Source: Candidatus Saccharimonadota bacterium (GTDB lineage: Bacteria > Patescibacteriota > Gracilibacteria > UBA1369 > 2-02-FULL-48-14). Taken from it: 32,000 nucleotides of DNA. The position numbers and the translations under genes are program-made. Below are positions 3,386-25,979 of the stretch, one piece after another (the stretch's first letter is position 1; each line of letters opens with the position of its first letter). The stretch spans positions 180,001-212,000 of the forward strand of contig OZ246396.1 in the NCBI GenBank assembly GCA_965230905.1, read 5' to 3'. The notes below the pieces were generated by a model. The model was not told the DNA's origin and searched no databases. It saw nothing but the letters and a program-made list of their open reading frames with translations.

Positions 3386-3954
3386 GTGATAGAAATAAAT
3401 TTATAGCCGGCCTCTTGATCCTTTTAGTGACCATCGGCTATGGCGTGTTCCAATGGTATGAACGCGAAGCCTTGGCGGTACAAGCCACCGTTTTGAGCAC
3501 CGAAGCGGCCAACCTCACTGCCGTGAGCGACAATTTGAGGGAAGATTACGACGCCATTAAAGTGGAAGTGTCTGCTGCCCGTGAAACGGCTGAGCAAGAA
3601 CTTTCGGTGGTATTCCCTACTAAAGAAGATCTCACCACGCTTACGCGTTTCTTTGATGACTTCTCGGTTAAAAACAACTTTGCCAGCAATCCTTTCTTTA
3701 TTAGCAGCTTGTCTTATGATGCGGCCGTAGCGCCCGAGGGCACCAGCTACCGAGTGGTCCCCCTTCGCCTCAGCATTGAAACTTCAAAAAAGAACCTGAG
3801 CAAATTTTTGGAAACCATTGAAACGTCCGGCTCACTGGAAGGCGAGGTTCGCCTGATGAGCGTGGAAGATATTAAGATCCAATACCCGGATGAATTCGGC
3901 GGATCTTACGAAGTTCAAGTCGAAATTTTTGCCTACTTCTCTCAAGAAATTTAA
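3382..3954 (+). CDS. pilO: PilO-like pilus assembly protein
   Basis: 190 aa with a short N-terminus, a TM segment (FIAGLLILLVTIGYGVF) and a coiled coil. The core that follows (FPTKEDLTTLTRFFDDF...YRVVPLRLSIETSKKNLSKFLETIETSGSLEGEVRLMSVEDIKI) is typical of PilO. Coupled by ATGA at 3382-3385 and TAATG at 3952-3956. Confidence 0.65.
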   Translation: MSDRNKFIAGLLILLVTIGYGVFQWYEREALAVQATVLSTEAANLTAVSDNLREDYDAIKVEVSAARETAEQELSVVFPTKEDLTTLTRFFDDFSVKNNFASNPFFISSLSYDAAVAPEGTSYRVVPLRLSIETSKKNLSKFLETIETSGSLEGEVRLMSVEDIKIQYPDEFGGSYEVQVEIFAYFSQEI

Positions 3955-6403: not shown

Positions 6404-6414
6404 ATAGCTTTAAT

Positions 6415-6442
6415 TTGCCTTTTGAAAGGCGTGGTGTAGAAT
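6415..6442 (+). promoter_or_regulatory. Candidate promoter of the pilin gene
   Basis: TTGCCT (6415-6420), 16-nt spacer, TAGAAT (6437-6442). This is the same -10 hexamer as the rplJ candidate promoter. ATG at 6472. Confidence 0.45.
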
Positions 6443-6471
6443 TTGCGTATTCAATTTAACCATACCACGCC

Positions 6472-7020
6472 ATGGTAACCCTTTCTCCGCGCAAACGCGC
6501 TTTCACCCTTATAGAACTTTTGATCGTGATTACGATCATTGGTATTTTGGCCGTTGCCCTTGTACCCCGACTCACCGGAGGACCTGGACGTGCCCGTGAC
6601 GCTCAACGTAAAGCCGATCTTCAACAGATTGCAACCGCGCTTGAGTTCTATGCGAACGACAACTCCGGAGACTACCCCCTTGCAACCACCGGCAACTGTG
6701 CCTCTGGCTTGGCTTTAACCAGCTATTTAACCGTAATGCCTGTGGATCCTGGCAACGATGGTTGGTCTACGACTTATTGTTCAGGTGGATATGCATATAT
6801 CCCGCTCAATACCAATGGCGGTACAGATATTGAAGGCTACTTACTCGTAGCGGATCTTGAGACGGAAACGGAGAAAGGAACGGGTATTTATAACACCAAC
6901 TTTACCGTTACCTCTACATCCACTGCCGCTGCCAACTTCTCAAGTACCAGCCCAGGTAATGCTGCTAAGCTCTGCAGCGCAATGACTTGTACTGACGCCA
7001 TTGTGGTGATTGGACGATAA
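6472..7020 (+). CDS. Type IV prepilin / pseudopilin (GspG/ComGC-like N-terminus)
   Basis: 182 aa with a class III signal MVTLSPRKRA|FTLIELLIVITIIGILAVALVP and Glu at +5. A GspG-like helix follows (RDAQRKADLQQIATALEFY). Four Cys lie in the C-terminal globular part. A strong terminator follows the gene. Confidence 0.9.
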   Translation: MVTLSPRKRAFTLIELLIVITIIGILAVALVPRLTGGPGRARDAQRKADLQQIATALEFYANDNSGDYPLATTGNCASGLALTSYLTVMPVDPGNDGWSTTYCSGGYAYIPLNTNGGTDIEGYLLVADLETETEKGTGIYNTNFTVTSTSTAAANFSSTSPGNAAKLCSAMTCTDAIVVIGR

Positions 7021-7035
7021 TTCTATCGACTTAGG

Positions 7036-7067
7036 AAAGGCCCTCGGAAACGAGGGCCTTTTTGTTT
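7036..7067 (+). terminator. Rho-independent terminator after the pilin gene
   Basis: AAAGGCCCTCG (7036-7046), GAAA loop, CGAGGGCCTTT (7051-7061), then TTGTTT. Nearly identical in sequence to the rplL terminator at 1504-1532. Confidence 0.8.
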
Positions 7068-7123
7068 ACCGCAACACAAAAAAATAAACGGCAAGTTGAA
7101 AGTGGATTTGCAGATTAAATGGG

Positions 7124-7145
7124 GGCGCGAAATTCGCGTCTTTTT
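7124..7145 (+). terminator. Possible second small hairpin plus T-tract between the pilin and giant genes
   Basis: GGCGCG (7124-7129) pairs with CGCGTC (7135-7140), including one G-U pair, around a 5-nt loop, followed by TTTTT (7141-7145). The stem is short and the call is weak. Confidence 0.3.
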
Positions 7146-7153
7146 GCTAGAAT
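7145..7153 (+). promoter_or_regulatory. Extended -10 element (TGcTAGAAT) 7 nt upstream of the giant-gene ATG
   Basis: TGCTAGAAT at 7145-7153 with no good -35. The A of the ATG at 7160 sits where a transcription start would be expected, which suggests a leaderless or near-leaderless mRNA. Confidence 0.3.
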
Positions 7154-7159: not shown

Positions 7160-10100
7160 ATGCGTCCACACCACTCTACGCATCGAATAAAACGACTTGT
7201 AATTAAGGGCTTTCTGCTCACGTTTTTGTCGTCACTGCTGCCCATGGGGCAAGTGGCTTCGGCGCTAAGCATCATTGACCAGGCTAGGCCTTCGGTCATT
7301 CAACCGGGCGGAAGTTTGCCGGAAATACGCAGTGTGGGCAGTGTGGAAACCCGTTACGGGCTGGTGGCGATTTTGGTGGACGACGAACTTCTGGGATCCA
7401 GCACCAGTGGAGGCGGATTCTTTTCGTTTTTGGGAACCGCTGGCTTGAAGGAAAAAATTCAGACCTATGCCCAGGATGTGCAGGCCACCCTGCCCTGGAC
7501 CAAAACGGTGATTGTGGAAGTGGCCGATACGGATACGCCGGTGGAGATTCAGCGCATGCTCGAGCGTTTTTACTTTGAAGGCAACCCAGAAGACTCCGAC
7601 CCGACCAAACTGAGTGGAGTGGTGATTGTGGGCGACGTGCCCCTGCCCGTGGTGAATAAATTGGGCAACCGCTTTATTTCTCTGCTGCCTTATACTGATT
7701 TTGAAGAGCCGGCGTATTTGCTCGATTCCGAAACGCAGGATTTTCTTCCCAACGCGGCGGCGCAAAATTTACAAAACGAAATTTGGCATGGAGTCATTGT
7801 GCCGCCACTCGATGGACAAGAGGGAATCGACTTGCTCGCGACTTATTTCGATAAAAATCATGCCTTCCATACCGGCGACGAGGATGCCACAAGCTTTAAT
7901 CAAAAAGTTTTCATTGGGGATTTGATAACCGAAGCTTCTGCGCTCAACCCCACGGCCTTTGCCAGCTATGAACGCTTCACCAATCTGTGGGAGGAGATTG
8001 CGTACTACCGCTACACCAACGATTTGGTGGAAGACTTGTACACGCAGATGCAGACCTCGGTGGAAGAAGGAGACTTTTTGGACAACGATAGCGATGGATT
8101 TTATGACGAGGAAGCGTCCAATGGAATCGATGACGACAACGACGGCTTAGTGGATGAAGATTTGGGAGATGGATTTTTTGGAATCGACAACGACGGCGAC
8201 GGCGTGGTGGATGAAGACAGTTTTGAAGACAACAACAACGATGAAGGTTGGATTTACTCCGGCTATGAAGGCAGCGAAGCCGAGTCGATATTTTCGGATC
8301 ACATGCTCGATGAAGATCCTCCCGGAGACACCACCGGAGGCGAAGACCAGGATGGAGATGGGTATTTGGATGGAGACGGTTGTCCCGGGCTCTGTGGACA
8401 GGACGACAACGGCGATGGCGTAGATTCCGACTTGGACGGATATCCCACCGGAATTGAAGTGCTGTACCATTGGGATTGGGCTGACGAACGGATACCTTGG
8501 GGCAACGTGAAGGATTGGACCAATGCGGAATTTGCTCAAAGTTTTTCTAGCGACGAAGCGGCAACGGCGTATTTGTCTGAAATGTTTGTGGATCAATTTT
8601 TCGGAGACGCCTATAAGAGCCCCACGTGTTATTTTGACGGAGTGTACCACCCTGAGTACGACGACGATGAAGATGGTTTTTGTGATGAAGACGGAAAAGA
8701 AGAGATGCAAATTTGGGCCAATGAAAATGGAACCCGCGCCAGCGGGACCTGCGCCTACAACGACGGGGATTGTGATGGGGTGATTGATGAAGATCCCATT
8801 GGACTTAAGAGCGAGGGAATGTTTGATAATTTGCCGGACATTCAAGCTAAACGTGTGGTGGAGAGCCTGACCAGTCGCTACGCCAGTATGTTTGATGAGC
8901 CACAGGGGGTGTGGAACCGAATCGTGGGGCAAACGGGCCGCTATGAAACCCGCAGCAGTGATGGAGAAACCGTGAGCAATGACTACGACAGCACCGTTTC
9001 TTTGATCGCCAAAAAAGATGAATTGGTTTTGCAGTACCTCACCGAATTGAATGCCAGCATGGAAGCAAAAGTGGACGCCATTGTGGAAGACCACCTGGCG
9101 CAGGACATTCCTTTGATTGCGGGGGTACAAATTACCGGAAAAATCACCACGGAAAATGAGGATGGCGACGAAGAAGGCACCGACGAGATTTGTGATGACG
9201 AGGGTGAGGTGGATTTGGGAAGCGACAAGTGTCTGCAGTTTGTAAATCAGTCGGGTTTTGACCCGCTTGCCTTTGGTATTCTTGATGAGGAAAGCAGTTT
9301 TCTAGATATTTTTAAATTGGGCGCAGAGCACTTTTATATTGCCGGCGAACATTTGTGGGACGTCACTTCACCTGCTCAATGCACCACCTTTGCCGGAACG
9401 GATGAAGTGGGCGGACAGTTGGCGCAATTCAATAGTTTGTATAGCAGAGAATTTAGCGTGGCGCACAACAATATGAGCATCGAGGAATTGCAAGACTACC
9501 GCAATTGTGTGCCGGAATTTGCCTCCTACTTAAAAGACATTCCACAAGTGTGCAACGTGGCCACCACGGTGAAATCCGTCCGCACTTTGGATGGCGCGAA
9601 GGCGCCGGATGAAGACACCGATACGAGTAAATGGGACGTGGGGGCTGAAGCGTGTTTTGAATTCAGAGAATTGGAGACCTTCAACGATTACACCCAGTCC
9701 CAAGCGGAATTCAACAACTGGCTTTCGTTGAGGATTCGGGTCTTTAGAGAGAGCGGGGCTACCGACACCGGGGAAACTTATCAGGAATTTTTAGGCCTGG
9801 TGGAGGAACAAATGGACACCTACACGCCCCGCCCCGACGAGGCCACGCTCCGAAAACAATTCCGCGAACTCGACTTGCTCCGTGCCGATGACGAACGCAG
9901 CTACACCATGATCGATTTGCTCGAAGAATTGGGCTACAAAAATGTGAGCGACGACGATGTGGATACCTTCATCGCCATGCTGGACGATGAATCGGACTTT
10001 GTGACGGTAGATCTGGATGTGGACGATCTGCGGGATCTTGTGGACGAACTGGATGAAATTGTGCAGCTGCAAGACAACGACCGACTTATTATTAATCATC

Positions 10101-13100
10101 CCAAACAAGGAAGCGGGATGGACGACGTACAAAGCTTGGAACTCATTTTCAATCGTTTGTATTTGATTGGAGGTGACGTGGTGGGCGAAGCGGGAGTTTA
10201 CGGACTCAGCGACACGCGTCTGGCTATGAACACGATTACGTCCGTGCACAAACACGTGGAGCCCACTTCAGAAACCTTGAATGCTCAGGTGACCAACGCC
10301 GGTTCCCCCAATATGCCCATCGACGCGACGCGGCGCATTTCTTTTATCGACAATGGGGACGACGCGCGGGAACTCGTGTACGTGAACGTGTTTGAAGCGG
10401 AAACTGTGGAGGATGTGCAGGATCAAATCACCGCGCTCGCGGATGAAATGGCCATAGTGGCGGGTGGTGGCAGTTTTGTGAACGATGTTAAGAATTTTTA
10501 CGACAACAAGAAAGACGGAATCAATGAGTATCAACTCAAGGACGCCTTGGCGTGGCGATACATGAGCATCGACGAAAAACACCGCTACGTGCTCAGCCAT
10601 TATTTGGGCGAGCAAGAGGCTATTGTGAGCAAGGCGCGCAAGGGATATGAAATGGTTTCTATTATTGCGGATGGAAGTGCCACCGAGATTTCGTATTCCA
10701 TGAACGGCGGCAAGCCCGGCACCGAAGAAGATCCCGAATACAATTACCGTGATGACGCCGGCATTGCAGCGGCTTTGGCGGCATCCCAAGACACGGCCGA
10801 GGAACTTGAGCCCATCAGCCCCGTGAGCAACACCACCCCGGTGCTGCTGAGCGAATGGATTGAGGCCATGGACGATTGGATGGCTGAAGTGGAGGATTCT
10901 TTATCCAGCGGCGGAACCGCGAACTATTGTGGCGAAGATTATATTTACCCAAGTGACATCAATACGGACAGCGACGCAAGCGGCATACCCGATGGCGCGG
11001 ACGCCACCACTTCCCTGCTGCTCTCCAGCGACGACATCAATGTTTTGCTGGCGGAAGGCGAGGGCAATGACAGCTACGTGGTTTCCGTGGGAGCCAAACA
11101 AGCCGACGGCACCATCAACACGCTGGACAACTACACTCAAGTGAAGCTGCAAATACTCAGTGGCGACACGGTGGTGGAGGTTCAGGGCACCGACACGCTG
11201 ACCCTCACCGGCGGAGTGGCCGTGTTTGAGCTGAAAGGTGAATTGCCCGGAAGCTTCGCGCTGCGAGCCGAGGCGGCCAACCGGGATGATGTGAGCAGCA
11301 GCAACTCCTTGAACGGAACCGTGGTGAGCAAGTATGTGAATATTATGACGCTGATAAAAGAGATGACGGGAACCGACGGCGAAAGCACCGTGGTGCAGGG
11401 CAATCGTATTGAAGTCACGGACGCCGAGGGTGAAGTGCGAGCGGTTTTGGATCCGGAAACGGGAGGAATTGAGCTCAGGGGTGCGGAGGCCGAGCTGCGC
11501 GAGGCCGAAAGCTCTGCGCCTACGCGCATCGCGATTTTGGGAGAGGATGGAACGGTGTATGGAAGTTTTTTCCTCATTCCTTCCACGGAACGGGTTGCGA
11601 TTGGAAACGGTCCGTCTGGGGTCTTTGTGCAAGTGGTTGGCGGCGCGGCCAGCGCGGCGATGGATGAAAATGGCGTGGCCCTGGAAGTCACTTTGGAAGA
11701 CACTGCCGTGCAAATGGGACTGGTGACCGGACTGGGACAAATCGCCGTTGCGGACGGCTACTCTTTGGAATTCGACAACCCGAGTGAAATCAATTTGTAC
11801 GACCCCGTTCATGTTTTGAGCGGCGACGGAGAAACTTTATTCACCGTGACCATCAATCATTCTTTCACCGAGGGAAACATTGAGGAAGCAATCGTGGAGG
11901 GTGTGCCCGAAGATTTCTCTAGCTTGGGCAGTTTTGATCATGAGCCCGGTGTTTATGCGGCTTCTAAAACGGCGGCCTATGAACGCATCGCGGTGAGCAG
12001 CGGGGACAGCGTGGCCAGCACCAATATTTTCACCAACGACATCCCCGCCGATGGAAAATCTGAGATTTACGTGCGTGCGGAGATCCGTGACCAAGCCGAC
12101 AAAGTCTACGGCGACGACAACACCAGCGTGATTGAATTCGTGCTATCTACCGAGGATCATGGAGAAATCGAGACTAAGCGTGTGCAAGTGAGCGGCGGTG
12201 TGGCCGAAGCCAAATTCGTCACCACCAAAGTGGCTGGAGACGTGACTGTGGAGGGCCGCATAACGGATGGATCGCTTCCCTCCCTAGACGCGCAAATTCA
12301 TGTGTACCCCGGCGAGCCCGTGCGCCTCGAGCTGCAAGGCGAATCGAGGGTGCTGCCGGCCGGTGCGGAAGCCGCCACGGATATGACAGTCTACTTGTAC
12401 GACCAATTTGGAAACCTGGCTTCCAACGGATTCTACCCAGTCACCTTCACCACGGAAGGCGGCGTGACTTTGCTCGATTTGAATGACGAGGATTCCACCG
12501 CAGACGGCGTGCAAGTGACCACGGCGGACGGCAGCATAGCATTCCGCGTACTGGCGAGCCCTGAGGTGGAATCGGCCAGCGTGCAAGTGTCCCTTCCTCA
12601 AATTCCCGACGGTGGAGACAGTTTCAATATTGAGCACAAAGAAAGTTTGGCGCTCAAAGTGAGCACCACCAAACCTTACCTCTTTGCCGGCGGAAGCAAC
12701 GGACAAACCCTCACGGTGAGCGTGGTGGATGAGTTGGGAATTCCTGTGAGTGGATTCAATGGCGATGTGCTGATGAGCGTGAGCGACCCCGGCTACGGAA
12801 GTTTTGAAAGCGATACCTTGACCCTGGACAACGGCAAGGCTTCCACCACCCTGCTGCCGGGAACCTTGGCGGGCAGCGGATCCATTATTGCGGAAAGCGC
12901 CGGCATACAAGGCGGCAGCTCGACCGTGGTGCTAAAACCCGCCGACATTTATGAACTGCGCATACGAAAAGAAGACGGTACCTTCAATATGGCAGCCGGA
13001 GAAAAGGAGAAATTTTATATCGAAGGTTTTGACGTGTATGGAAACTTGGTGGACACCGACAGCAGCACCAGCGGAACCCTGCGCCTCACGGACGCGACGG

Positions 13101-16100
13101 CGGAGTATGGAACTTTGTCGTCTGAAACTTTTGCTTTGAATCAAGGGGTGGCGACCGTGAGAGTGACCACGGGTGAGGTGAGCGGAAAAATCAGCTTAGT
13201 GGCCAGCGCGACCGGCCTTTTGGCCGGGGTTTGGGGCGGCGACGTGAGCTACCGCATCAGCGGAGAAGAGTTTGCGGACATGGATTTGCAAATGCTTTAT
13301 GGGTCTGTGCTCGGGGCGCCGTTCGGAGACGTGACGCAAGAAAACTACGTGGCCGGGTGGATGACCTTCAATGGAAAAACCCAGGCCGTGACCAGTTTGA
13401 TTTCTGAGCCCATACCCAAGAAACGCATCGCAAGCGTGGACGCCAACGGAGCCGTGAGTCTGCCCGAAGACGGAATGGTGAGCCAAGTGGTGAATGGGGC
13501 TGGAAGCGAACTGCCCACGCACATTCAGTGGCGCTCCTTCCCCGACGACATTTTGATTGGGGAACTCTTTTACGTGCTGTCCGAGGACATGGAAATTAGT
13601 GCGGAACTCATCACTTCTAAAGACACCTTCACGCTGGAGGCAAGCGACGGAACTTGGGTGCTGCGTGAGGACAACGCGGCCGTGGTGAAAGTGCGCACGG
13701 ATGGCCAAGTGGTGCTGGTGGATCCCACGTATTCTTTGGTGGTGAACGGGGCCGCGCAGGGTCTGGGCTTTGGAGTTTTGAAGAACACGGAACAAATCAT
13801 GAGCATTGATTTCAGCGGCGAATTTGGCACCGATGTGAGCGCCGTGGACACCAATTTTGACTTGGAAGACTGGGCCAGCCAAACAGCCGGCGTCTATCTT
13901 AAACCCACCGGCGCGAGTGTGAACCGCATAGTGCGCATACCCACGGGAAACAGTTCCCAAAATCCTATGGGTCTGGCCATTATCGATCCTGAAACCGACT
14001 TGGCTAAAGAAATGCAGCCTTCGCTGGGCTACCAAAGTTTGGAGGCCGCGGAAGACAATGGAAACATTGGATGGGAAGATGAGAACAAACATCTGCTGCT
14101 CTTTGCAGCGGGAAACACCGTGGGGCAATCCAACCTCTACTACCCTTCTGAAGTGGGCGTGGTGCTGGGAGATCCAACCATTAAACTGCCCACCTTGGGA
14201 GAGCTGGGGACCTTGGGTTACACGAGTGATGTGGGGACGCTGGTTTCTACATCCAACGAAGAAGTGCTGACGCTGATGGACCTGGATTACAACGGCGATG
14301 ACTTGCCCGATGTGCTCACCGCTTATAAAGACGGCCGCATTGAAGTGCTGCAAAACGCCAAGGCCGCGACGCGTCTGCACAACCGCGGTGAACTGCTTTA
14401 CATTGAAAACGGCATCTCCTCCATCGACAAAGGCGATTTCAATAACGACGGCCTGGAAGACCTGCTGATTGTGACGGAAGAAGCCTGTTACGAAGGCGAA
14501 ATGTGCTTGTACTTATACGAAAATATTGGCGGAGGATTTGTGGCCAAGAACTTGGCGCTCACCGGCATTTCCGGCACGCCCACCCAAGTGGAAGTCGGCG
14601 ATTTGAACGACGATGACTACGACGACTTGGTGATTGTGGATGAGAACATGGTGATGTACACCGTGTGGAATTCGGAAGGCGTTTTGGAAACCGTGGACGA
14701 GGTGAAAGATTTTGGGCTGAACGCGGATCCCGAAGAAGAGCTGGGCGCCGATGTGGCCGTGCGCACGGATGACTTGGCAAAAGGTTCCGTTTCTTTGGGG
14801 ATTTTAACGGATGATTTCAGTGAAGAAAATGGAGCGGAGGACTTTTTGGCGGCGCTGGGCGTGGACGACGATTACACCGCGGCTTCTACCGAAGGCTTGC
14901 AGCGAAAAGAAAATCAGGCCTTTGAATACGCCGACAGCCGGGCGATGGAAGACTTGGTGGCGGTGAGCAAAACCGTGGCGGACCCCAGTAGCGGCAGTGT
15001 GGAAGTGGGCGATGTGCTCACCTACACCGTGACCGTGGAAAATATTTCCGGCGCGGCGTACTCTGCGCTTTACCTTTCCGACAGCGTGGGCAATTATTTC
15101 CAATTCGATGAAGACAGCTTTGCTTGCAGCGATTGTTCCCCTGCCAATACAGGCGTGACGATTCAAGAAGGCGACAACAACCGACCCTTTATTTATGGAC
15201 CGCTCAGCCTCAGCAACGGGGAAAGCCTGACCTTCACCTACGACGTTTCCGTGGAATCCTTGCCCAAACTTTCTGTGATGCTTTCGCAGGATTTGTACAC
15301 GGATTACAAAGACGACAACTATATGGACATTGGGGTTTCGCCCGAGGGCAACACCAGCGGGGAATTGATCGTTTTCTATTCAGATGGATACGTGACCCAT
15401 GTGCTTGAGGAAGGTTTCTTGGGTCTGGGTGGAAACAGCTTCAAGCAGGTGAACTACCAAGAAAAGGCCTATTCCCCCGCCACCTACGCCGAAGAGGACA
15501 ACACCATACCAAACCCCTTTGGAGACGAAGACGGCGACGGCGTGCCGGATTTCTTGGCCAAGATGGATCAGGAAAAAGGAATTCCCGTGGCCAAGAATGG
15601 AGACTTCGATGCCGTGGGAGAAGTGCTGGGAGCCGTGGACGAAGATGAGGATGGTTACTACTCCACCGATGAAATGTTCGACAACACCGAGGACGCGGAC
15701 GGCGACGGCATCAACGACATTATAGATATTTGGGTGAGCGGAAATGATTTGCTGCTGGATCCCACTTTGAATTTGGAAGCAGCGGACGACGACGTGGAAC
15801 TGAGCGATGAAGAACTGGAAATCGACCTGGAAGCCGACATTGCTTTGCTGGATAAGGAAGTGGAAGGCCTGACCGATAAAATTGAAGAAATCGTGTCCAT
15901 GTTCACCTGCAACGGAGGGTGTATTGCCTTCCCGGGAAGCGTGGCCTTTTTAGCGCCGGGAAATTACCACGAGCCACTTACCGGGACGACCCTGTTTTTG
16001 GATCCCGGGACGCCGATCTTTGGAATTATCAATGTGTTGCCAGTGGCTTGTACGGCACAGATGTGTTACGCCCCGGGCGCCCTGCGCCTGTACTTAGCGC

Positions 16101-19100
16101 CCACCACCACGCTGGGGCTGGGGCTGGGAATTTGTCTGGGGCCCTACCCCGTGGGCCAGTGTTTCGCCTTCAGCATTCCTTTGCTGCAATTGCTGAGCCT
16201 TTGTGATGTGATCAATGGATACATTTCTGACGGGCTTTCGTCCGCCAGCGCCTTTGTGACGGGCGAGGCTGACACCGCTTACAATGTGGTTGAAAACCTT
16301 TCCAGCGACAATGGAAGCACGGGACTCGAAAGTACGGTGTTTGCCTCATACGAACCGCCTGTTTCGGCGAACTTGAATGTCCAAGTGCCCGGCTTCCCCA
16401 GCATCTTCACGGAGTGGTGGAAGGCACAAAAAGAGGAATTCTTTAAAGTGCTGGACCTGCCCGATATCACGTTCATTTATCCCGACCCCAAGAGTCTGAC
16501 CACGGAATTCACCGGCATCAGCGAGCGCATTGATAAGAGCCGTGAAGAAGACGCGGTGGACGCCGACGGAACCAGGAAAATCGACGAACTCACCAGCGGC
16601 ATTTTGGGGCTTGAGAAATGGCTGAACACGGCCCACGCCCTGCCGCTGATTGATATTGAGCCGGAACCCGTGACCATCCGTTACCCCATGCTCACGCCTG
16701 AGGAAATTGAAATCTTTAAGCGAGATATGCAGGCCTGGGTGGACGACGCTAAGTTGGAGTTGGAAGCGCTCCGAGAGCAAATTGAAATCATGGAGGATTT
16801 AACGGAAATACAAAAAGCTGCCATCGAAGAATTGGAGACCACCGTGACCGAAGCCATCACCGCCATTGAAACCAATTTGGCGATATTGGAAAGTTATACG
16901 GAAATTCCTGAAAAAATTCTGCTCATACGGGACATTGAAGCCTACTACGCCAAGACCATCATTTGTTATGTGGACGCCATTTTAAGCAACACGGCGGGCT
17001 ACCTGACCGAGAACGTGGAACGAATAGAAGCCTGGGGACAGTGGGTTGTGGCTCTGCAGGAAATTGTGGACGGCTGGCAGGTTCTCATAGACCTTTCGGC
17101 GGATCTTATGGATTCCTGTGACAAATGCACCAACCAACGTTACAGCGGCTTGCAATTGCTCTTCAGCTTGTTCGTGTTCATCCCTGATTTTCCTGTGGTG
17201 GAACTGCCCAAGCTACCGGACATTGTGATCGACGTTTCCAATATTCAGGCTGGAATGGACATCGTGTGGCCGGATATAAAGTTTGTGCCGGAGCGTATCA
17301 ATATTCCGGAGTTGCCGCGTCTGGTTATTCCCGACTTGGATATTAAACTGGATGCGGACTTTGATTTAGAACTGGAAATTCCCCTGCTGCCCACTTTTGA
17401 TTTTAACTTTGAACCGCCGGCCCTGCCGCCCCTCACCCTGCCCAATTTACCGAGCCTACCGCCTCCCCCTGCCTTGCCCGAGTTGGATCCAAGCCTGCAG
17501 GCGGCCCTGAACATTGCCAGCAATATTTTGAAGATCGTGTGCATCATCCGCCAAGGGTTCATTCCCACGCCCGAGCTCACCCTCAAGTCGAAAATTGAGG
17601 AAATCACGGAACGTCCGGGGGGAATTGTGCTGCCCTCTGACCTTTCCCAAACGGTGGAATGGCCTGAGTTTAATTTCGACTACTGGAAAGAAATCCGCGT
17701 GAACACCACGCTGAATCTTAATTTGGATTTCTCGGCGCTTTATAACGAAATTTCCGACCTGGGAGAAAAGAGCAACGCAGAGATTACGAAGTTTGTACAA
17801 GAAGCGATCAACGACAATTTGAATGATTTGCAGGATGAAATTAAGTCGATCTTTGACTTGATTGGAGATCAGGAATTGGAAGTGGGCGTAGACGTGGACA
17901 TAGAGGGATCTGCGGACTTCAGCGGAGACGACGCGGGGTTGGATGGAGACGCGGACGCGGAGGGAGAGGCAGAGGGTGATTTCAATACGGAACTGGAGTC
18001 TTATGAAGAAGCCATGAACACCGCTCTGTCTTACAGCGACAACCCCTTGGTGCTGCAAAACCTCGGGGCTTTGAAGCAAGTGATGGGCGGCCTGCAAACT
18101 AAAGTGGATGCGTGGAGCGCTGAGCTGCCTGACGAAGTGCTGCTGAAAGGCGAAGAGGAAATGCTGGCTTTGGACGATCCACGGCTGCACCGCTACAACG
18201 AGATTGTTCAGAACCCTTCTTTCGATAAAGATTTCTTGGCGAGCATTGAAGGCACGCCCCTCGCCTCTTTGGTCACTTTGCGAGATTCCATGATTGCCTA
18301 CACGGAGGAGCTGGATCAAGGCACCATCGCCCTGCGTGGAATGGATGGGGAGTCTTTCCAACGTTACTTGGCTTCCGAAAATATGAGCTCTCCATTCATG
18401 TTGGCGAGTGAAGAAGGCGGCTTCATGGACGCAGCCGCGAACTGGAATCCAGAAAAGTGGGCAACCCCAGCCGAAGATGACGAAGCGGTGGAATTGGCGT
18501 CTGAGTCCACGGATGGACTCGAGCTCGGCACCCAAGCCAGAACCTACGACGAAGGATTGTTCCTCTACAACGCAGAACTGGGCGTGAACGAACGGCTCTC
18601 CGACTACACGCAAGAAGCCAAGGAAGCCAGCAGCATTTTGATGATTGATTTGGACGGCGACGGCGATGAAGACGTGGTTTATTCCATGGGAGGCGACATC
18701 TACTTAAAAGAGAATCACACCGAAGCGCCCACGCTCAGCTACGTGAGCAGTGACCCCGAAGAAAGCACGGTGCCCGACATGGACCCCGGTTACGGCAGCG
18801 TGCAAAATCTGAAACGTGGAAAGAACGATTATGAAGAAGCGAGCTTCTCCTTCTCCCCTTCCGATTCCATTGGATACGACGTGCGTTTCTACGATTCTTT
18901 GGACGCGCAGGAATCTGAACCGGATGAAAATATCAAACGTTTGCTGCTCTTGGTGGACAGTGAAAATGAGAGCAGCACCTTCGCCGATTCAACTGGCAAG
19001 TCCGCCGGGCAATTGCGCAGCAGCCGTCTGTGGGCGGATAACGTGAGCGGAAGCGTGACGGTGAAGAACGGATACAAACGCACGATTATAAACGCGAATG

Positions 19101-21607
19101 GAGAAATCACCGTGAGTGAAGCGGTGGTCTTCCAAACCATTGAGGACAGCGTGATTGAATTTGAAGCGGATGAGGGCGCCACGTCCATTGATGTGCCCGC
19201 GCACACCGTGGTTTCCTTTGCCCAGGGTACGGAAAAAAACATCCGCGTGGAAAACGGTTCGGTGTACTGGGTGGACATGGGTGAAACCGTGGAGGAACAA
19301 GATTTGGCGGAGGGCATGGAACTCTTTGCGGAGGAATTGGTGGCACTGGAAAGCAAGGGGGCCGATGCAGTGCTGGTCACCACCGAGGGCACGGAACTGC
19401 GACTCGATAAACAAGAAGCCTTTGTGATGGATAAACTCATCAGCCAAAGCAGTCCATCGGCCAATATTGAGTTAGAAAATGGGGCTTACTACACGGTGAG
19501 CCGCAGCGTGCAAGCCGACGGAAGTTTTGGAACCCTTTCCGACACCATTCTGCTCAATCCGCAGGTCTGTGCGGACGACAGCGAACCCTACACCCTGATT
19601 GATGATGGCGGCGCCGATACCGATGGCGACGGGGCCATTGAAGTGGCGATTTTCTCCACCAAAGAACTTTCTGCCGAAGGTTCCTTCGACAGCGATAGCG
19701 AGATTGTGGACGCGTACTGGGATCTCGACAGCGGCGTGGACAGCGACGGCGACGGCGTGAGCAACAACGATGAACAAGTGATTGGTCTCACCGCTGAAGT
19801 GGGCCCTTATGAAGATTTGAATACGCGCACCGTTACGCTCTACGTAACCGATGCCGCCGGCAATGTGGGTGAAACGGAAGTCGCGGTGGAAATTTATGTT
19901 CCCGACATTACTTTGGCGGACGCGAGCATCGATGCGGTGAGTGGATTCACCACGCCGAGCAGTCCCCTCTTCCCCTTCGATTTGGTGCGTGACCGCAGCG
20001 GCGCTATCAACGAAATCGGCACGGGTTACTCCACCGATGAAGCGGGAGATTTCAACGAAGACATGATTCCTTCAGACCTGCTCTCCGTTTACGACGGCGC
20101 GGGCGAAACCATTGCTCAGTTCAATCCCACTACTAAGCAAGTCGTGGTCTACGACCCGGCTTACGACGCCATGGTCCTTTCTTCCGATGCGGACTGGCCT
20201 TCCCGCTTGGCCGTGTACGAAAAGAGTCTGGGCATGGTGATGGGCAGCTTCCTATTTGTGGCAGACGGCGAACACCCCATTCAAAAGATGACCCAGCCCT
20301 TGGCTGACTTGGATCTTTCTATATACCAAGGGCTTACGGTGTATCCGGTGGCGGGTGAAGACGGTTACGAATTCACGGATAATTCCTTGGTGGCGCGCGA
20401 CGACTTGGGCTCGCTCGACTTCATTGTGAGCGAAACGGGAAACATCACTATTTTTGACGAGCGCTACACGCTGGTGAAACGGGAGGCCGCGTCTTTGGAT
20501 GAGTACTTGGTGATTGAAGTTTACGACAACGGCACCTTGGAATTGGAGATTTGGCCTGGCACGCCTAAAGCAAGGTATTTGGTCAGCGCCGTGGATTTGG
20601 ATCTGCCTCCGTCCACTTTGATTGGAGCGGGCGATTCCCTGAGCGCGGACTACCGCCTCAACTTTGAGGACATTGAAAACGATGACGAGCTCTACCAAGA
20701 CATTGCCGAGCTCGTGGAACGCGACGTGCTGGAGGGCTACACCATTGAAGGCCAAGCGTACTTCAAGCCCGATCAGTCCATCACTCGTGCTGAATTCACC
20801 AAGATTATTTTGGGCATACTCTGTATCACGCCAAGCGACGAAGCGTACCTGCTTCCCTCTGTGTTCAACGACATTTTGGACAGTGGCGCGTGGTACTATT
20901 CCTTCACCAAAGAATCCTTCCTCCGCGACCTGATTACGGGTTATTTGGGCGAAGTGAATTCCAGTGGTGTGGCTCCGTTCAAACCCAATGCCACCATCAC
21001 CCGTGCCGAGGCCACTAAGATTGTACTCGAGGCCCTGAACCAGGAAGGCATCATTGAATTGCCTGCCGATTTAACCGGCGAGCCTTGGTATGAACCGTAC
21101 ATGGAAATCGCGCAAGATCTAACGCCTTACCTCACCGGTGACGCCACCGCGGGTGAAAGCAATTTCATTGTGACGGAAGCAGAAGCCGCCGATCCTTCTC
21201 ACAAAATGACGCGTTACGAATTTGTAGAAATGTCCGTGCGGGTGCTCAAGGCTTACAATTGTTTCGACCTCGATAGCGACGGCGACGGACTAATCAACTA
21301 CGACGAAGAAAGCAAATACGGCACCGATCCCTACAACCCCGATACCGACAGCGGAGGCGTGGACGACGGCAGTGAAGTGGGCCGCAGCAGCGATCCTTTG
21401 GACGAAAGCGATGACTTTGGAGACGGTTCGCTCGAAGGAGTGGAACCCGGAATTTATGCGGTGCGTGAAGCCTGTATGGCTTGCCCCTGCAATTCCACCA
21501 TCGATTACGACGCTGACCTTAGACCGGGTGATGAAGTCTTTGCTATAATCCGCAATGACGCCGGCGAAATCTTTGGAGTGAGCAACACCTTAACCATTCA
21601 AGAATAG
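7160..21607 (+). CDS. Giant secreted, SLH-anchored mosaic surface protein (4,815 aa), putative adhesin/fibre
   Basis: Uninterrupted 14,448-nt ORF with a signal-peptide-like N-terminus (MRPHHSTHRIKRLVIKGFLLTFLSSLLPMGQVASA). Many extracellular modules can be recognised by eye and are listed as separate 'other' features below. The reading frame is consistent and rich in GAC/GGC/GTG codons throughout. Confidence 0.9.
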   Translation: MRPHHSTHRIKRLVIKGFLLTFLSSLLPMGQVASALSIIDQARPSVIQPGGSLPEIRSVGSVETRYGLVAILVDDELLGSSTSGGGFFSFLGTAGLKEKIQTYAQDVQATLPWTKTVIVEVADTDTPVEIQRMLERFYFEGNPEDSDPTKLSGVVIVGDVPLPVVNKLGNRFISLLPYTDFEEPAYLLDSETQDFLPNAAAQNLQNEIWHGVIVPPLDGQEGIDLLATYFDKNHAFHTGDEDATSFNQKVFIGDLITEASALNPTAFASYERFTNLWEEIAYYRYTNDLVEDLYTQMQTSVEEGDFLDNDSDGFYDEEASNGIDDDNDGLVDEDLGDGFFGIDNDGDGVVDEDSFEDNNNDEGWIYSGYEGSEAESIFSDHMLDEDPPGDTTGGEDQDGDGYLDGDGCPGLCGQDDNGDGVDSDLDGYPTGIEVLYHWDWADERIPWGNVKDWTNAEFAQSFSSDEAATAYLSEMFVDQFFGDAYKSPTCYFDGVYHPEYDDDEDGFCDEDGKEEMQIWANENGTRASGTCAYNDGDCDGVIDEDPIGLKSEGMFDNLPDIQAKRVVESLTSRYASMFDEPQGVWNRIVGQTGRYETRSSDGETVSNDYDSTVSLIAKKDELVLQYLTELNASMEAKVDAIVEDHLAQDIPLIAGVQITGKITTENEDGDEEGTDEICDDEGEVDLGSDKCLQFVNQSGFDPLAFGILDEESSFLDIFKLGAEHFYIAGEHLWDVTSPAQCTTFAGTDEVGGQLAQFNSLYSREFSVAHNNMSIEELQDYRNCVPEFASYLKDIPQVCNVATTVKSVRTLDGAKAPDEDTDTSKWDVGAEACFEFRELETFNDYTQSQAEFNNWLSLRIRVFRESGATDTGETYQEFLGLVEEQMDTYTPRPDEATLRKQFRELDLLRADDERSYTMIDLLEELGYKNVSDDDVDTFIAMLDDESDFVTVDLDVDDLRDLVDELDEIVQLQDNDRLIINHPKQGSGMDDVQSLELIFNRLYLIGGDVVGEAGVYGLSDTRLAMNTITSVHKHVEPTSETLNAQVTNAGSPNMPIDATRRISFIDNGDDARELVYVNVFEAETVEDVQDQITALADEMAIVAGGGSFVNDVKNFYDNKKDGINEYQLKDALAWRYMSIDEKHRYVLSHYLGEQEAIVSKARKGYEMVSIIADGSATEISYSMNGGKPGTEEDPEYNYRDDAGIAAALAASQDTAEELEPISPVSNTTPVLLSEWIEAMDDWMAEVEDSLSSGGTANYCGEDYIYPSDINTDSDASGIPDGADATTSLLLSSDDINVLLAEGEGNDSYVVSVGAKQADGTINTLDNYTQVKLQILSGDTVVEVQGTDTLTLTGGVAVFELKGELPGSFALRAEAANRDDVSSSNSLNGTVVSKYVNIMTLIKEMTGTDGESTVVQGNRIEVTDAEGEVRAVLDPETGGIELRGAEAELREAESSAPTRIAILGEDGTVYGSFFLIPSTERVAIGNGPSGVFVQVVGGAASAAMDENGVALEVTLEDTAVQMGLVTGLGQIAVADGYSLEFDNPSEINLYDPVHVLSGDGETLFTVTINHSFTEGNIEEAIVEGVPEDFSSLGSFDHEPGVYAASKTAAYERIAVSSGDSVASTNIFTNDIPADGKSEIYVRAEIRDQADKVYGDDNTSVIEFVLSTEDHGEIETKRVQVSGGVAEAKFVTTKVAGDVTVEGRITDGSLPSLDAQIHVYPGEPVRLELQGESRVLPAGAEAATDMTVYLYDQFGNLASNGFYPVTFTTEGGVTLLDLNDEDSTADGVQVTTADGSIAFRVLASPEVESASVQVSLPQIPDGGDSFNIEHKESLALKVSTTKPYLFAGGSNGQTLTVSVVDELGIPVSGFNGDVLMSVSDPGYGSFESDTLTLDNGKASTTLLPGTLAGSGSIIAESAGIQGGSSTVVLKPADIYELRIRKEDGTFNMAAGEKEKFYIEGFDVYGNLVDTDSSTSGTLRLTDATAEYGTLSSETFALNQGVATVRVTTGEVSGKISLVASATGLLAGVWGGDVSYRISGEEFADMDLQMLYGSVLGAPFGDVTQENYVAGWMTFNGKTQAVTSLISEPIPKKRIASVDANGAVSLPEDGMVSQVVNGAGSELPTHIQWRSFPDDILIGELFYVLSEDMEISAELITSKDTFTLEASDGTWVLREDNAAVVKVRTDGQVVLVDPTYSLVVNGAAQGLGFGVLKNTEQIMSIDFSGEFGTDVSAVDTNFDLEDWASQTAGVYLKPTGASVNRIVRIPTGNSSQNPMGLAIIDPETDLAKEMQPSLGYQSLEAAEDNGNIGWEDENKHLLLFAAGNTVGQSNLYYPSEVGVVLGDPTIKLPTLGELGTLGYTSDVGTLVSTSNEEVLTLMDLDYNGDDLPDVLTAYKDGRIEVLQNAKAATRLHNRGELLYIENGISSIDKGDFNNDGLEDLLIVTEEACYEGEMCLYLYENIGGGFVAKNLALTGISGTPTQVEVGDLNDDDYDDLVIVDENMVMYTVWNSEGVLETVDEVKDFGLNADPEEELGADVAVRTDDLAKGSVSLGILTDDFSEENGAEDFLAALGVDDDYTAASTEGLQRKENQAFEYADSRAMEDLVAVSKTVADPSSGSVEVGDVLTYTVTVENISGAAYSALYLSDSVGNYFQFDEDSFACSDCSPANTGVTIQEGDNNRPFIYGPLSLSNGESLTFTYDVSVESLPKLSVMLSQDLYTDYKDDNYMDIGVSPEGNTSGELIVFYSDGYVTHVLEEGFLGLGGNSFKQVNYQEKAYSPATYAEEDNTIPNPFGDEDGDGVPDFLAKMDQEKGIPVAKNGDFDAVGEVLGAVDEDEDGYYSTDEMFDNTEDADGDGINDIIDIWVSGNDLLLDPTLNLEAADDDVELSDEELEIDLEADIALLDKEVEGLTDKIEEIVSMFTCNGGCIAFPGSVAFLAPGNYHEPLTGTTLFLDPGTPIFGIINVLPVACTAQMCYAPGALRLYLAPTTTLGLGLGICLGPYPVGQCFAFSIPLLQLLSLCDVINGYISDGLSSASAFVTGEADTAYNVVENLSSDNGSTGLESTVFASYEPPVSANLNVQVPGFPSIFTEWWKAQKEEFFKVLDLPDITFIYPDPKSLTTEFTGISERIDKSREEDAVDADGTRKIDELTSGILGLEKWLNTAHALPLIDIEPEPVTIRYPMLTPEEIEIFKRDMQAWVDDAKLELEALREQIEIMEDLTEIQKAAIEELETTVTEAITAIETNLAILESYTEIPEKILLIRDIEAYYAKTIICYVDAILSNTAGYLTENVERIEAWGQWVVALQEIVDGWQVLIDLSADLMDSCDKCTNQRYSGLQLLFSLFVFIPDFPVVELPKLPDIVIDVSNIQAGMDIVWPDIKFVPERINIPELPRLVIPDLDIKLDADFDLELEIPLLPTFDFNFEPPALPPLTLPNLPSLPPPPALPELDPSLQAALNIASNILKIVCIIRQGFIPTPELTLKSKIEEITERPGGIVLPSDLSQTVEWPEFNFDYWKEIRVNTTLNLNLDFSALYNEISDLGEKSNAEITKFVQEAINDNLNDLQDEIKSIFDLIGDQELEVGVDVDIEGSADFSGDDAGLDGDADAEGEAEGDFNTELESYEEAMNTALSYSDNPLVLQNLGALKQVMGGLQTKVDAWSAELPDEVLLKGEEEMLALDDPRLHRYNEIVQNPSFDKDFLASIEGTPLASLVTLRDSMIAYTEELDQGTIALRGMDGESFQRYLASENMSSPFMLASEEGGFMDAAANWNPEKWATPAEDDEAVELASESTDGLELGTQARTYDEGLFLYNAELGVNERLSDYTQEAKEASSILMIDLDGDGDEDVVYSMGGDIYLKENHTEAPTLSYVSSDPEESTVPDMDPGYGSVQNLKRGKNDYEEASFSFSPSDSIGYDVRFYDSLDAQESEPDENIKRLLLLVDSENESSTFADSTGKSAGQLRSSRLWADNVSGSVTVKNGYKRTIINANGEITVSEAVVFQTIEDSVIEFEADEGATSIDVPAHTVVSFAQGTEKNIRVENGSVYWVDMGETVEEQDLAEGMELFAEELVALESKGADAVLVTTEGTELRLDKQEAFVMDKLISQSSPSANIELENGAYYTVSRSVQADGSFGTLSDTILLNPQVCADDSEPYTLIDDGGADTDGDGAIEVAIFSTKELSAEGSFDSDSEIVDAYWDLDSGVDSDGDGVSNNDEQVIGLTAEVGPYEDLNTRTVTLYVTDAAGNVGETEVAVEIYVPDITLADASIDAVSGFTTPSSPLFPFDLVRDRSGAINEIGTGYSTDEAGDFNEDMIPSDLLSVYDGAGETIAQFNPTTKQVVVYDPAYDAMVLSSDADWPSRLAVYEKSLGMVMGSFLFVADGEHPIQKMTQPLADLDLSIYQGLTVYPVAGEDGYEFTDNSLVARDDLGSLDFIVSETGNITIFDERYTLVKREAASLDEYLVIEVYDNGTLELEIWPGTPKARYLVSAVDLDLPPSTLIGAGDSLSADYRLNFEDIENDDELYQDIAELVERDVLEGYTIEGQAYFKPDQSITRAEFTKIILGILCITPSDEAYLLPSVFNDILDSGAWYYSFTKESFLRDLITGYLGEVNSSGVAPFKPNATITRAEATKIVLEALNQEGIIELPADLTGEPWYEPYMEIAQDLTPYLTGDATAGESNFIVTEAEAADPSHKMTRYEFVEMSVRVLKAYNCFDLDSDGDGLINYDEESKYGTDPYNPDTDSGGVDDGSEVGRSSDPLDESDDFGDGSLEGVEPGIYAVREACMACPCNSTIDYDADLRPGDEVFAIIRNDAGEIFGVSNTLTIQE
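8081..8803 (+). other. Acidic DxDxDG-type calcium-binding loop cluster (domain of giant protein)
   Basis: Examples: DNDSDGFYDEE, IDDDNDGLVDED, IDNDGDGVVDED, EDQDGDGYLDGDG, DDNGDGVDSDLDG, DDDEDGFCDED, NDGDCDGVIDED. Further copies lie at 15512-15733, about 19600-19775 and 21266-21420. Confidence 0.7.
11009..11340 (+). other. Ig-like beta-sandwich domain (Big-type) of giant protein
   Basis: About 110 aa: LLLSSDDINVLLAEGEGNDSYVVSVGAKQADGT...TLTLTGGVAVFELKGELPGSFALRAEA. The pattern of alternating beta-strands is typical of bacterial Ig-like domains. Confidence 0.5.
12029..13228 (+). other. Four tandem Ig-like (invasin/Big_1-style) repeats of giant protein
   Basis: Four units of about 100 aa. Each contains 'ADG/AGxxxxxx(V/L)xVxxxDxxGNxV' and a later 'G(V/K)Axxx(F/L/V)xxxxxxG' motif. 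Examples: IPADGKSEIYVRAEIRDQADKVY...GGVAEAKFVTTKVAGDVTV; TDMTVYLYDQFGNLAS; QTLTVSVVDELGIPVS...NGKASTTLLPGTLAGSGSI; EKFYIEGFDVYGNLVD...QGVATVRVTTGEVSGKISL. Confidence 0.6.
14278..14680 (+). other. FG-GAP/VCBS-type repeats (integrin-alpha-like) of giant protein
   Basis: DLDYNGDDLPDVLTAYKDGRIEVL, GDFNNDGLEDLLIVTEE and GDLNDDDYDDLVIVDENMVMYTVW. One more copy, DLDGDGDEDVVYSMGGDIYL, lies at 18647-18715. Confidence 0.65.
14963..15257 (+). other. DUF11-style conserved repeat domain of giant protein
   Basis: VSKTVADPSSGSVEVGDVLTYTVTVENISGAAYSALYLSDSV...GESLTFTYDVSVES matches the usual pattern (K.v......v..Gd.ltYtitv.N.G...a..v.l.D.lp...g.s.t.ty.v.v). Confidence 0.5.
15908..16230 (+). other. Hydrophobic Cys/Pro/Gly-rich core segment of giant protein
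   Basis: CNGGCIAFPGSVAFLAPGNYHEPLTGTTLFLDPGTPIFGIINVLPVACTAQMCYAPGALRLYLAPTTTLGLGLGICLGPYPVGQCFAFSIPLLQLLSLCDVINGY. It has seven Cys and is almost free of charged residues, in contrast to the highly acidic flanks. I recognise no family. Confidence 0.6.
19634..19905 (+). other. PKD-like domain of giant protein
   Basis: AIEVAIFSTKELSAEGSFDSDSEIVDAYWDLDSGVD...RTVTLYVTDAAGNVGETEVAVEIYV follows the PKD pattern (FDaSgS.D.dG.I..Y.WDfGDG...h.Y...G.Y.VtLtVtD..G......v.i.V). Confidence 0.55.
20663..21255 (+). other. Three S-layer homology (SLH) motifs of giant protein
   Basis: FEDIENDDELYQDIAELVERDVLEGYTIEGQAYFKPDQSITRAEFTKIILGIL; FNDILDSGAWYYSFTKESFLRDLITGYLGEVNSSGVAPFKPNATITRAEATKIVLEAL; EPWYEPYMEIAQDLTPYLTG...PSHKMTRYEFVEMSVRVL. 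The F.P...iTRAE signature is present in the first two copies and degenerate in the third. Confidence 0.75.
21266..21420 (+). other. Thrombospondin type 3-like repeat of giant protein
   Basis: DLDSDGDGLINYDEESKYGTDPYNPDTDSGGVDDGSEV matches the bacterial TSP3 motif DxDxDGxxDxxE..GTDPxxxDTDxxGxxDGxE. Confidence 0.7.
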
Positions 21608-25702: not shown

Positions 25703-25979
25703 AGAAAAGAGTGCTTTCGTCTTAGCTGAAGAAGCCGGAGGAAAAAGGCCAAAGGGACTATTGGGTTTCTTAACGAGACAATAAGGAGAAAAAGGTGTGT
25801 TTTTTGCGGGCCATGACGGGTTTTTTCTTGTGTTCAAGTTCCACGCTTTCACGAGCGTTGTTGAGGTCTACCATGCAGTACGGACAAAGGTCCTTTCGAA
25901 GGGAAATCAATCTACCGCAGGAGAAGCAATTAAATAACATGAGGCGTGGGTGGGAGGGGAATCAAGAGGACGGAAACCT

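Follow-up and report, generated by a model that had tools for sequence, protein, structure and literature searches.

We analysed a 32-kb window of DNA (32,000 nucleotides; contig OZ246396.1 of assembly GCA_965230905.1, positions 180,001 to 212,000) that carries one uninterrupted 14.4-kb open reading frame (ORF; 7160..21607, + strand), here called the giant gene. This ORF is a real gene and, as judged by alignment, its product is a member of one old collinear family; downstream it is followed by four conserved partner genes, D1 to D4. The explanation that we favour, and to which we would give about an even chance of being right, is that the giant protein belongs to a Sec-exported surface structure, anchored by S-layer homology (SLH) domains and stiffened by calcium, which with its four partners would mediate cell contact alongside pili.

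We began with the reality of the gene. It opens with an ATG and continues through 4,815 codons without a stop; as about 4% of random codons are stops, a chance origin of such a frame is impossible, and in the other frames of the same interval the longest ORF is at most 394 aa. A scan of one genome per species recovered six orthologous loci in Peribacteria/Peregrinibacteria metagenome-assembled genomes (MAGs), one of these labelled Gracilibacteria. Four of the six are uninterrupted, full-length and collinear (5,047-5,246 aa, 51-71% identity), the remaining two being a split copy on an N-containing contig and a fragment, and conservation is fairly even across the entire protein in the orthologue alignment. 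The single ORF described in the initial annotation, which was made from the sequence alone, is therefore borne out, since full-length collinear orthologues in independent MAGs make a chimera or a hidden frameshift very unlikely. Altogether, the chance that the ORF is a chimeric or frameshift-masked assembly artefact is negligible: nothing was found in its favour, the orthologues come from five independent assemblies of different studies, and about 100 further relatives are full-length. The sole oddity is a missing internal SLH/TSP3 module of ~380 residues; the difference is clean and in frame, and, of 103 full-length relatives, 70 likewise have a single SLH module.

With D at 10.1% and E at 9.1%, vs K at 2.8% and R at 2.6%, the encoded protein is extremely acidic; it contains 34 Cys. 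Residues 18-36 form its sole convincing membrane-spanning-type hydrophobic segment, and together with a basic n-region and the sequence VASA|L they support the proposed Sec-type signal and, with it, a predicted secreted protein. No class III (prepilin, N_methyl) motif was found in the giant protein, either by Pfam or by direct reading, whereas the upstream pilin has one.

The extent of the family was then evaluated with an exhaustive HMMER search of 1.84 billion representative proteins, for which the central 671 residues (aa 2890-3560, the core) served as query. This search returned 395 clusters (50% identity) at E<=1e-3, with 220 at <=1e-30, while a word index of 5.8 billion proteins, which misses these matches, returned nothing for the core. 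Nearly all core-bearing proteins are 3,000-6,000 aa long (6,066 aa for the longest among the 150 core matches listed), with the core lying 2,200-3,400 residues from the N-terminus. All named members are Ca. Peregrinibacteria or Gracilibacteria, filed in databases as 'S-layer homology domain-containing', 'VCBS repeat-containing', 'TIGR01451 family' (IMG) or hypothetical proteins. Moreover, the best 150 representatives share one domain order down to ~30% identity, namely the N-terminal domain, an Ig/FG-GAP/DUF11 region, the core, and a C-terminal third with the SLH module, with variable stretches at about aa 300-500, 700-1000, 1400-1600, 2800-2900, 3600-3700 and 3900-4100. The protein had been called a mosaic; an order that is constant in about 150 representative relatives is not that of a shuffled adhesin. 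In the literature searched we found no description of the giant family, its core, the four partner genes or their synteny, so that the core family appears to be new as a defined family, though large surface proteins from the candidate phyla radiation (CPR) are known generally. A distant member was also observed in a UGA-recoded (code 25) Gracilibacteria genome of 32% GC (locus L012, 10001-22675), where code 25 allows 248 in-frame TGA codons to be read through; this member retains the N-terminal motif as well as the core, and has no SLH hit, no pilus genes and none of the four partner genes.

We next focused our attention on the two family-specific regions. Among close orthologues, no block is more conserved than the N-terminal domain (aa ~60-300), whose invariant polar residues include D159, K167, D180, H210, H234 and H237. 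An alpha/beta module had been read at this place from the translation, and the secondary structure predicted by AlphaFold2 (AF2) agrees with it. The domain has no Pfam match and no PDB sequence match; a Foldseek search with its AF2 model (pLDDT 65) gave at best E 0.03, with TM <=0.26 to unrelated folds, and its 14 relatives in the indexed database are all fragments of the giant family. Its invariant Asp, Lys and His residues are a lead towards a possible site of binding or catalysis. A gingipain (peptidase C25)-like domain was considered and rejected, there being no Cys in the first 400 residues, no sequence match and no fold match.

In the core, C2917, C2921, C2992, C3001, C3015, C3320, C3323 and C3461 are at least 90% conserved in 121 aligned sequences, as are many prolines. 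Its AF2 model (mean pLDDT 70, 35 sequences) predicts six strands over the nearly uncharged aa 2934-3006 (pLDDT 74-88), as well as a hairpin and further helices beside the long helices and the proline-rich stretch. The hydrophobic Cys-rich core claimed for 15908-16230 was recovered as a hydrophobic Cys-rich segment; the claimed proline-rich spacer is proline-rich, but it ranks with the best conserved stretches in the family and is therefore no spacer. No Pfam family and no PDB sequence matched the core, and Foldseek searches of its model against the PDB and viral models gave nothing significant (best E 0.8 and 0.26); on these negative results, a viral-fusogen-like or ClyA-like membrane-active element, which had been considered, is unsupported. 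Structure prediction followed by Foldseek, as suggested in the initial annotation, was thus carried out for both regions, with models of moderate confidence and without a significant fold match.

These regions bear directly on whether the protein delivers an enzyme or a toxin, in which case the N-terminal domain or the core would be catalytic or membrane-active and the rest would be a stalk presenting it to prey or host, a role of the kind proposed for giant proteins of predatory Omnitrophota. This idea draws on the N-terminal domain being the best conserved, with its invariant H210, H234-x2-H237 and D180, and, in the core, on long helices and a module of 100 residues with unusually little charge; moreover, a preprint implicates the giant proteins of Omnitrophota in cell-wall degradation (10.1101/2023.11.21.568195). 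However, Pfam, NCBIfam, PDB sequence and fold searches assigned neither region to a catalytic family, which, with models of moderate confidence, is weak evidence. Glyco_hydro2_C5, found at 45.2 bits in three stretches of aa 1601-2040, is an Ig-like accessory domain and not a catalytic one, and the gingipain-like idea has no fold support. We therefore consider enzyme or toxin delivery very improbable, in agreement with the earlier view that the protein is not an enzyme, as no catalytic domain was detected in the Pfam, NCBIfam and PDB searches.

Along the rest of the protein, modules were scored in tiles against Pfam curated cut-offs, whole-protein scores being weaker (Table 1). In the tile covering aa 1601-2040, Big_1 reached 41.8 bits (cut-off 34.9) and Invasin_D3 40.4 bits (cut-off 33), both falling below cut-off when the whole protein was scored. 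Four tandem Ig copies had been proposed at 12029-13228; Ig domains are present there, but the number does not stand, as Pfam sees three stretches, hhalign links only two of the four blocks at 95%, and a self-BLAST of the giant protein gave no matches that would indicate tandem Ig repeats. Integrin-alpha-type propeller blades are supported by scores: within aa 2280-2560, FG-GAP_3 reached 57.1 bits (cut-off 26.9) in three stretches, and FG-GAP 33.5 bits (cut-off 22.1), so that Pfam sees three blades, against the seven of a complete propeller, where FG-GAP/VCBS repeats had been placed (14278-14680). The DUF11-like repeat proposed at 14963-15257 also exceeded its cut-off. DxDxDG-type motifs number 18, against 0.8 expected from shuffled sequence (shuffle maximum 4), and all are located in the acidic clusters that had been named. 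In contrast to these successes of the profile searches, which recovered SLH, Ig-like, FG-GAP and DUF11 modules, three claims found no support at curated cut-offs: the Ig-like repeat at 11009-11340 has no Pfam match, the second FG-GAP repeat remained under its cut-off, and the PKD-like domain at 19634-19905 gave a PKD_4 score of 10.4 bits (E 0.72) vs a cut-off of 27. Pfam likewise found no match in the giant protein to RTX families, to an outer-membrane beta-barrel or to the C-terminal lectin-like tip of intimin/invasin, and, as first remarked, large parts of the protein match nothing recognisable. Overall, the recognisable modules appear to be of adhesion and calcium-binding types, with calcium binding itself putative.

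The predicted cell-wall anchor is at the C-terminus. SLH (PF00395; cut-off 20.8) was scored at 31.2 bits in the whole protein and at 41.8 bits, in two stretches, in the tile. Direct reading gives ITRAEF (aa 4541-4546), ITRAEA (aa 4613-4618) and MTRYEF (aa 4683-4688), in agreement with the three SLH motifs first placed at 20663-21255: Pfam calls two stretches, and the third unit is read from MTRYEF. The module lends support to the suggested wall anchoring, which would require that the organism makes the pyruvylated wall polymer bound by SLH domains. Its best PDB sequence match, a weak one (E 0.03), is the SLH region of Bacillus anthracis Sap (3pyw). A C-terminal SLH module was found in 96 of 103 full-length relatives, and 26 of the 103 have a second, internal one. 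The four closest orthologues carry near residue 1,600 an internal SLH and TSP3-like module of ~380 residues, which is a copy of the C-terminal module; the protein of the window lacks it at ~11880 (after aa ~1573-1583), in a clean in-frame manner, the equivalent in the orthologous locus L001 being aa 1669-1918.

Such a module invites another explanation, in which the giant protein and its partners help to build the S-layer or an outer sheath: as a scaffold attached to the wall, they would give the envelope shape or protection and have no specific cell-binding role. SLH domains are typical of S-layer proteins, Sap is the best PDB sequence match, and the 26 relatives pinned to the wall twice, by an internal and a C-terminal module, would suit a layer better than a protruding fibre. 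Even conservation, a single architecture, phylum-wide occurrence and the acidic composition point the same way, as do the strong-looking promoter element of the gene, which is consistent with high expression, and the S-layer genes reported in Peribacteria (PMC4736985). However, at ~520 kDa the protein is far above most S-layer subunits, and FG-GAP, Big_1, DUF11 and a distal conserved domain are more typical of binding proteins. In addition, the code-25 member has no SLH and yet keeps the N-terminal domain and the core, so that wall attachment is not the essence of the family. On balance, we consider a purely structural envelope role unlikely.

We then turned to the genes that follow. D1 to D4 (Table 1) have starts and stops that overlap or nearly abut, each bears a signal peptide or N-terminal anchor and is predicted to be secreted, and in all four a conserved Cys stands 2-6 residues before the C-terminus (…CYAHQCINK, …AQCK, …GYCK and …RQCN, respectively). 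No family match was found for any of them. That they are paralogues of each other was rejected, with hhalign probabilities below 2%, as was the idea that they or the giant protein are pilin-like, none having a class III signal. The four genes follow the giant gene in nine loci (the window and eight others), and are absent from the code-25 Gracilibacteria locus. At locus L010 they are present without upstream pilus genes, D2 and D3 homologues being detectable there. The giant gene and its four partners are thus the most constant unit of the region, tighter than the pilus association, and had been overlooked by the initial annotation. Converging on D4 at 25770-26150 (- strand) are two genes of 56 aa each, one encoding an HTH_17 protein (2.6e-13) and the other a CxxC…CxxC zinc-ribbon-like protein; an HTH_17 gene was seen at the equivalent place in L009, L010, L011 and L013, and its product may be a regulator of the giant module.

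Upstream, the initial annotation had pointed to a pilin gene directly before the giant gene, and a prepilin-type pilin is encoded there. The same strand carries, in this order, rplJ, rplL, U1, U2, ATPase, platform and pilin. The synteny of pilin and giant genes in related genomes, a check proposed at the outset, is kept in 11 of 13 loci, where PilB/GspE-type, PilC/GspF-type and pilin genes lie directly upstream of the giant gene, down to ~30% core identity. As parts of a type IV pilus (T4P) or of a type II secretion system (T2SS), the ATPase, platform and pilin obtain similar scores, and no secretin gene was found within the cluster. The ATPase is short (416 aa): its alignment to the PilB and GspE models is confined to their C-terminal ~380 residues, their N-terminal region having no counterpart in it, and its score lies under both equivalog cut-offs.

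Between the pilin and the giant gene lies an intrinsic terminator, whose hairpin stem is preserved through compensatory changes in six loci. It is absent from the listing of a consensus terminator scan, and was identified by reading, alignment and folding. A second hairpin with a T run was also seen at 7122-7145. A conserved extended -10-like element precedes the giant ATG, and no Shine-Dalgarno sequence is present before that ATG; in distant loci, the -10-like elements lie further upstream. This arrangement suggests that a separate transcription unit begins with the giant gene, and that its mRNA is possibly leaderless or near-leaderless. As a conserved terminator and a separate promoter-like element stand between them, the link to the pilin is one of neighbourhood, and co-transcription is not demonstrated.

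The same junction helps to weigh the possibility that the giant protein is a component or cargo of a pilus or secretion machine, either a passage or collar for the pilus through wall and S-layer in a cell that has no outer-membrane secretin, or a cargo moved across the wall by a T2SS-like pseudopilus after Sec export. The pilus genes upstream in 11 of 13 loci, across ~30-70% identity, are in agreement with such a role, as are the about equal fit of ATPase, platform and pilin to T4P or T2SS and the cluster without a secretin gene. The hydrophobic core, which lies between two wall anchors in 26 relatives, would permit an envelope-spanning layout, and giant genes of Omnitrophota likewise come after a T2SS/T4P-like locus (bioRxiv 10.1101/2023.11.21.568195). 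However, the terminator and the promoter-like element separate the two units, the giant gene stands in L010 and L012 with no pilus genes next to it, and in L010 the four downstream genes stay. Moreover, no ring-forming or secretin-like domain was detected in the giant protein, which has no transmembrane helices beyond the signal. A machine role is thus, in our judgement, distinctly improbable.

Returning to the favoured explanation, a wall-anchored contact structure, we propose that the giant protein would be exported via the Sec pathway, and that its triple SLH module would pin the C-terminus non-covalently on the cell wall. The many acidic loops would bind calcium, probably keeping the protein extended and stiff. 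From the wall outwards, the order would be beta-rich domains, the core with its disulfide-rich hydrophobic beta module, helix bundle and proline-rich stretch, then DUF11, the FG-GAP propeller and the Big_1 Ig domains, with the conserved family-specific alpha/beta domain presumably at the far end. The giant protein and D1 to D4 would be made as one unit and may form a complex. In Peregrinibacteria they would most likely make up a fixed structure on the cell surface, through which another cell or a surface is contacted, next to the type IV pilus machinery usually encoded just before the giant gene. Export, SLH attachment, calcium stiffening and the extended body follow from well-known properties of the modules, and the conserved partners suggest a multi-protein surface structure. 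Since other CPR bacteria have been proposed to attach by means of giant surface proteins and type IV pili (PMC8080830, PMC9894109), contact between cells, or between cell and surface, is the most likely role.

Several observations weigh against this proposal. Ig, FG-GAP and DUF11 domains are generic scaffolds and no proof of adhesion, and there is no hypervariable tip, as often found in host-specific adhesins, the N-terminal domain being the best conserved instead. The N-terminal domain and the core, the most conserved parts, match no known family or fold, and their activities are unreadable from homology. The tie to the pilus is one of neighbourhood, as the conserved terminator splits the pilin from the giant gene, and two loci (L010 and L012) have no pilus genes upstream of it. 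Furthermore, in the literature searched no Peregrinibacteria culture or known host was found.

A bolder version holds that the giant protein and its four partners are a hitherto undescribed, envelope-associated contact organelle specific to Peregrinibacteria/Gracilibacteria, acting at the membrane of the cell itself or of its host and coupled to the pilus. One or two SLH modules would then sit in the wall, while the uncharged, disulfide-rich beta module, the modelled helix bundle and the proline-rich stretch would act at a membrane, and coupling with the adjacent type IV pilus machine would serve host attachment or exchange. We regard it as a doubtful proposition with a small chance of being correct; if true, it would represent a new kind of cell-surface machine, and not one more adhesin.

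Comparison of the neighbourhood between loci also allowed us to compare rates of change. In L001 and L005, respectively, identity is 71% and 52% for the giant gene, 76% and 61% for PilC, 59% and 51% for the pilin, 56-63% and 31-40% for D1-D4, and 97% and 77% for PilB, with uvrA at 92% in L001. The giant gene thus appears to evolve at a rate akin to that of envelope-machine parts and not of housekeeping genes. Judged by gene order, the whole ~30-kb neighbourhood is syntenic across the lineage. In most related loci rplJ-rplL (514-1461) and uvrA (29087-31975, opposite strand) keep their flanking positions, and the gap from rplL to U1 holds different genes in L001 vs L002, being a variable insertion point. 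Two further ORFs, 1623-2475 (-) and 28053-29090 (+), lie in stretches of lower GC (0.40-0.41) and have no Pfam match. Scans of the window detected neither an Rfam family nor a tRNA.

Table 1. Features of the giant gene and its neighbours, with positions in the window.
Feature	Position	Strand	Evidence or remark
Upstream pilus-assembly unit (U1, U2, ATPase, platform, pilin)	2189..7020	+	profile scores
U1, 398 aa, bitopic	within 2189..7020	+	no assigned function
U2, 190 aa, PilO/Amuc_1100-like	within 2189..7020	+	faint likeness
PilB/GspE-type ATPase	3954-5204	+	
PilC/GspF-type platform	5201-6403	+	
Prepilin-type pilin	6472-7020	+	N_methyl 7.4e-9
Intrinsic terminator after the pilin, GGCCCTCG-GAAA-CGAGGGCC and T run	7036..7066	+	reading, alignment, folding; z = -3.6
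Extended -10-like element TGcTAGAAT, conserved as TGnTAGAAT	7145..7153	+	7 nt before the giant ATG
Signal-peptide-like N-terminus (aa 1-36)	7160..7267	+	direct reading
N-terminal domain, beta-alpha-beta core then helices	7337..8059	+	orthologue alignment, AF2 model
Acidic DxDxDG loop cluster 1, 8 motifs with paired Cys	8081..8779	+	motif count; no Pfam family
Big_1/invasin-type Ig-like domains, at least three	12017..13249	+	Pfam
FG-GAP/VCBS repeats, integrin-alpha-type propeller blades with Ca loops	14249..14719	+	Pfam
DUF11 (PF01345) domain	14957..15259	+	29.2 bits vs cut-off 24.6
Acidic DxDxDG loop cluster 2	15524..15709	+	motif count
Conserved central core, family signature	15827..17839	+	exhaustive HMMER search, AF2 model
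Hydrophobic, nearly uncharged, Cys-rich beta module of the core (aa 2917-3020)	15908..16219	+	alignment, AF2 model
Three long core helices (31, 31 and 73 residues), ending at C3320-x2-C3323	16697..17122	+	AF2, pLDDT 82-94
Conserved proline-rich stretch LPxLP...PPPP	17177..17494	+	alignment; non-regular in AF2
Single FG-GAP-like Ca loop DLDGDGDED	18647..18715	+	17 bits, under Pfam cut-off
Acidic loop cluster 3	19616..19756	+	motif count
C-terminal SLH module, three units	20663..21256	+	Pfam, motif reading, PDB search
TSP3-like acidic repeats, 3' of the SLH module	21266..21421	+	TSP3_bac 22.8 bits, cut-off 25 just missed
Small conserved C-terminal domain, C4772-x2-C4775-x-C4777	21437..21604	+	orthologue and family comparison
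D1, 195 aa	21617-22204	+	
D2, 218 aa	22174/22189-22830	+	
D3, 607 aa	22827-24650	+	
D4, 353 aa	24641-25702	+	

Large surface proteins have been reported before in this part of the bacterial tree. The CPR predator Vampirococcus has giant surface proteins with integrin, DUF11 and PKD domains, proposed to attach it to its prey (PMC8080830), and large exported Cys-rich proteins are numerous in the genomes of Peribacteria, which also encode S-layer proteins and pili (PMC4736985). The large proteins of Vampirococcus lugosii and Peribacteria resemble the giant protein in lineage (Patescibacteria/CPR), in their multi-thousand-residue length, in integrin/FG-GAP and DUF11 domains and in coming from pilus-rich genomes, and a part in attachment to a host has been proposed for them. 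However, they are heterogeneous proteins listed by domain content, whereas here there is one orthologous family, set apart by its 670-residue core, N-terminal domain, fixed order, four partners and conserved synteny. In Omnitrophota, giant genes lie directly downstream of a T2SS/T4P-like locus (bioRxiv 10.1101/2023.11.21.568195); similarly to the present case, they follow GspE/GspF-type genes and genes for small proteins with class III signal peptides, in ultra-small and probably host-dependent bacteria. Their locus differs in having the secretin gene gspD and more than 10 subunits, and their proteins are much larger, while here a conserved terminator stands between the pilus unit and the giant gene.

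Among characterised proteins, B. anthracis Sap (3pyw/6bt4) shares the triple SLH module with TRAE-type motifs, but its SLH region is N-terminal and that of the giant protein C-terminal; the giant protein is about six times larger, and some of its relatives have two SLH modules. The RTX adhesins LapA, SiiE and MpIBP are likewise very large, acidic and rich in Ca loops, with Ig-like domains, and are regarded as extended stalks that carry a binding region at the distal end. The giant protein differs from them in having, by Pfam, no RTX repeats or C-terminal type I secretion system (T1SS) signal, with an N-terminal signal peptide instead; it also has no near-identical repeat arrays (self-BLAST), an SLH anchor, and pilus and not T1SS neighbours. 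With intimin/invasin it shares the Big_1/Invasin_D3-type Ig domains, above the Pfam cut-off, as the only stalk-type domain in common, and lacks their outer-membrane beta-barrel, LysM and C-type lectin tip.

Outside Saccharibacteria, little is known of the ways in which ultra-small CPR bacteria recognise other cells and hold on to them. Few phyla are as rich as Peregrinibacteria in proteins of more than 5,000 aa, which are uncharacterised (PMC11573180), and the family described here probably accounts for that reported enrichment. An anonymous 14-kb ORF has become a defined family, which comprises at least 395 clusters at 50% identity, and the giant gene is a marker with which the surface apparatus of the lineage can be tracked. 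Metaproteomics, cryo-electron tomography and structure determination now have concrete targets in the N-terminal domain, core, SLH module and four partners. Altogether, these results make the giant gene a good candidate for how Peregrinibacteria contact other cells.

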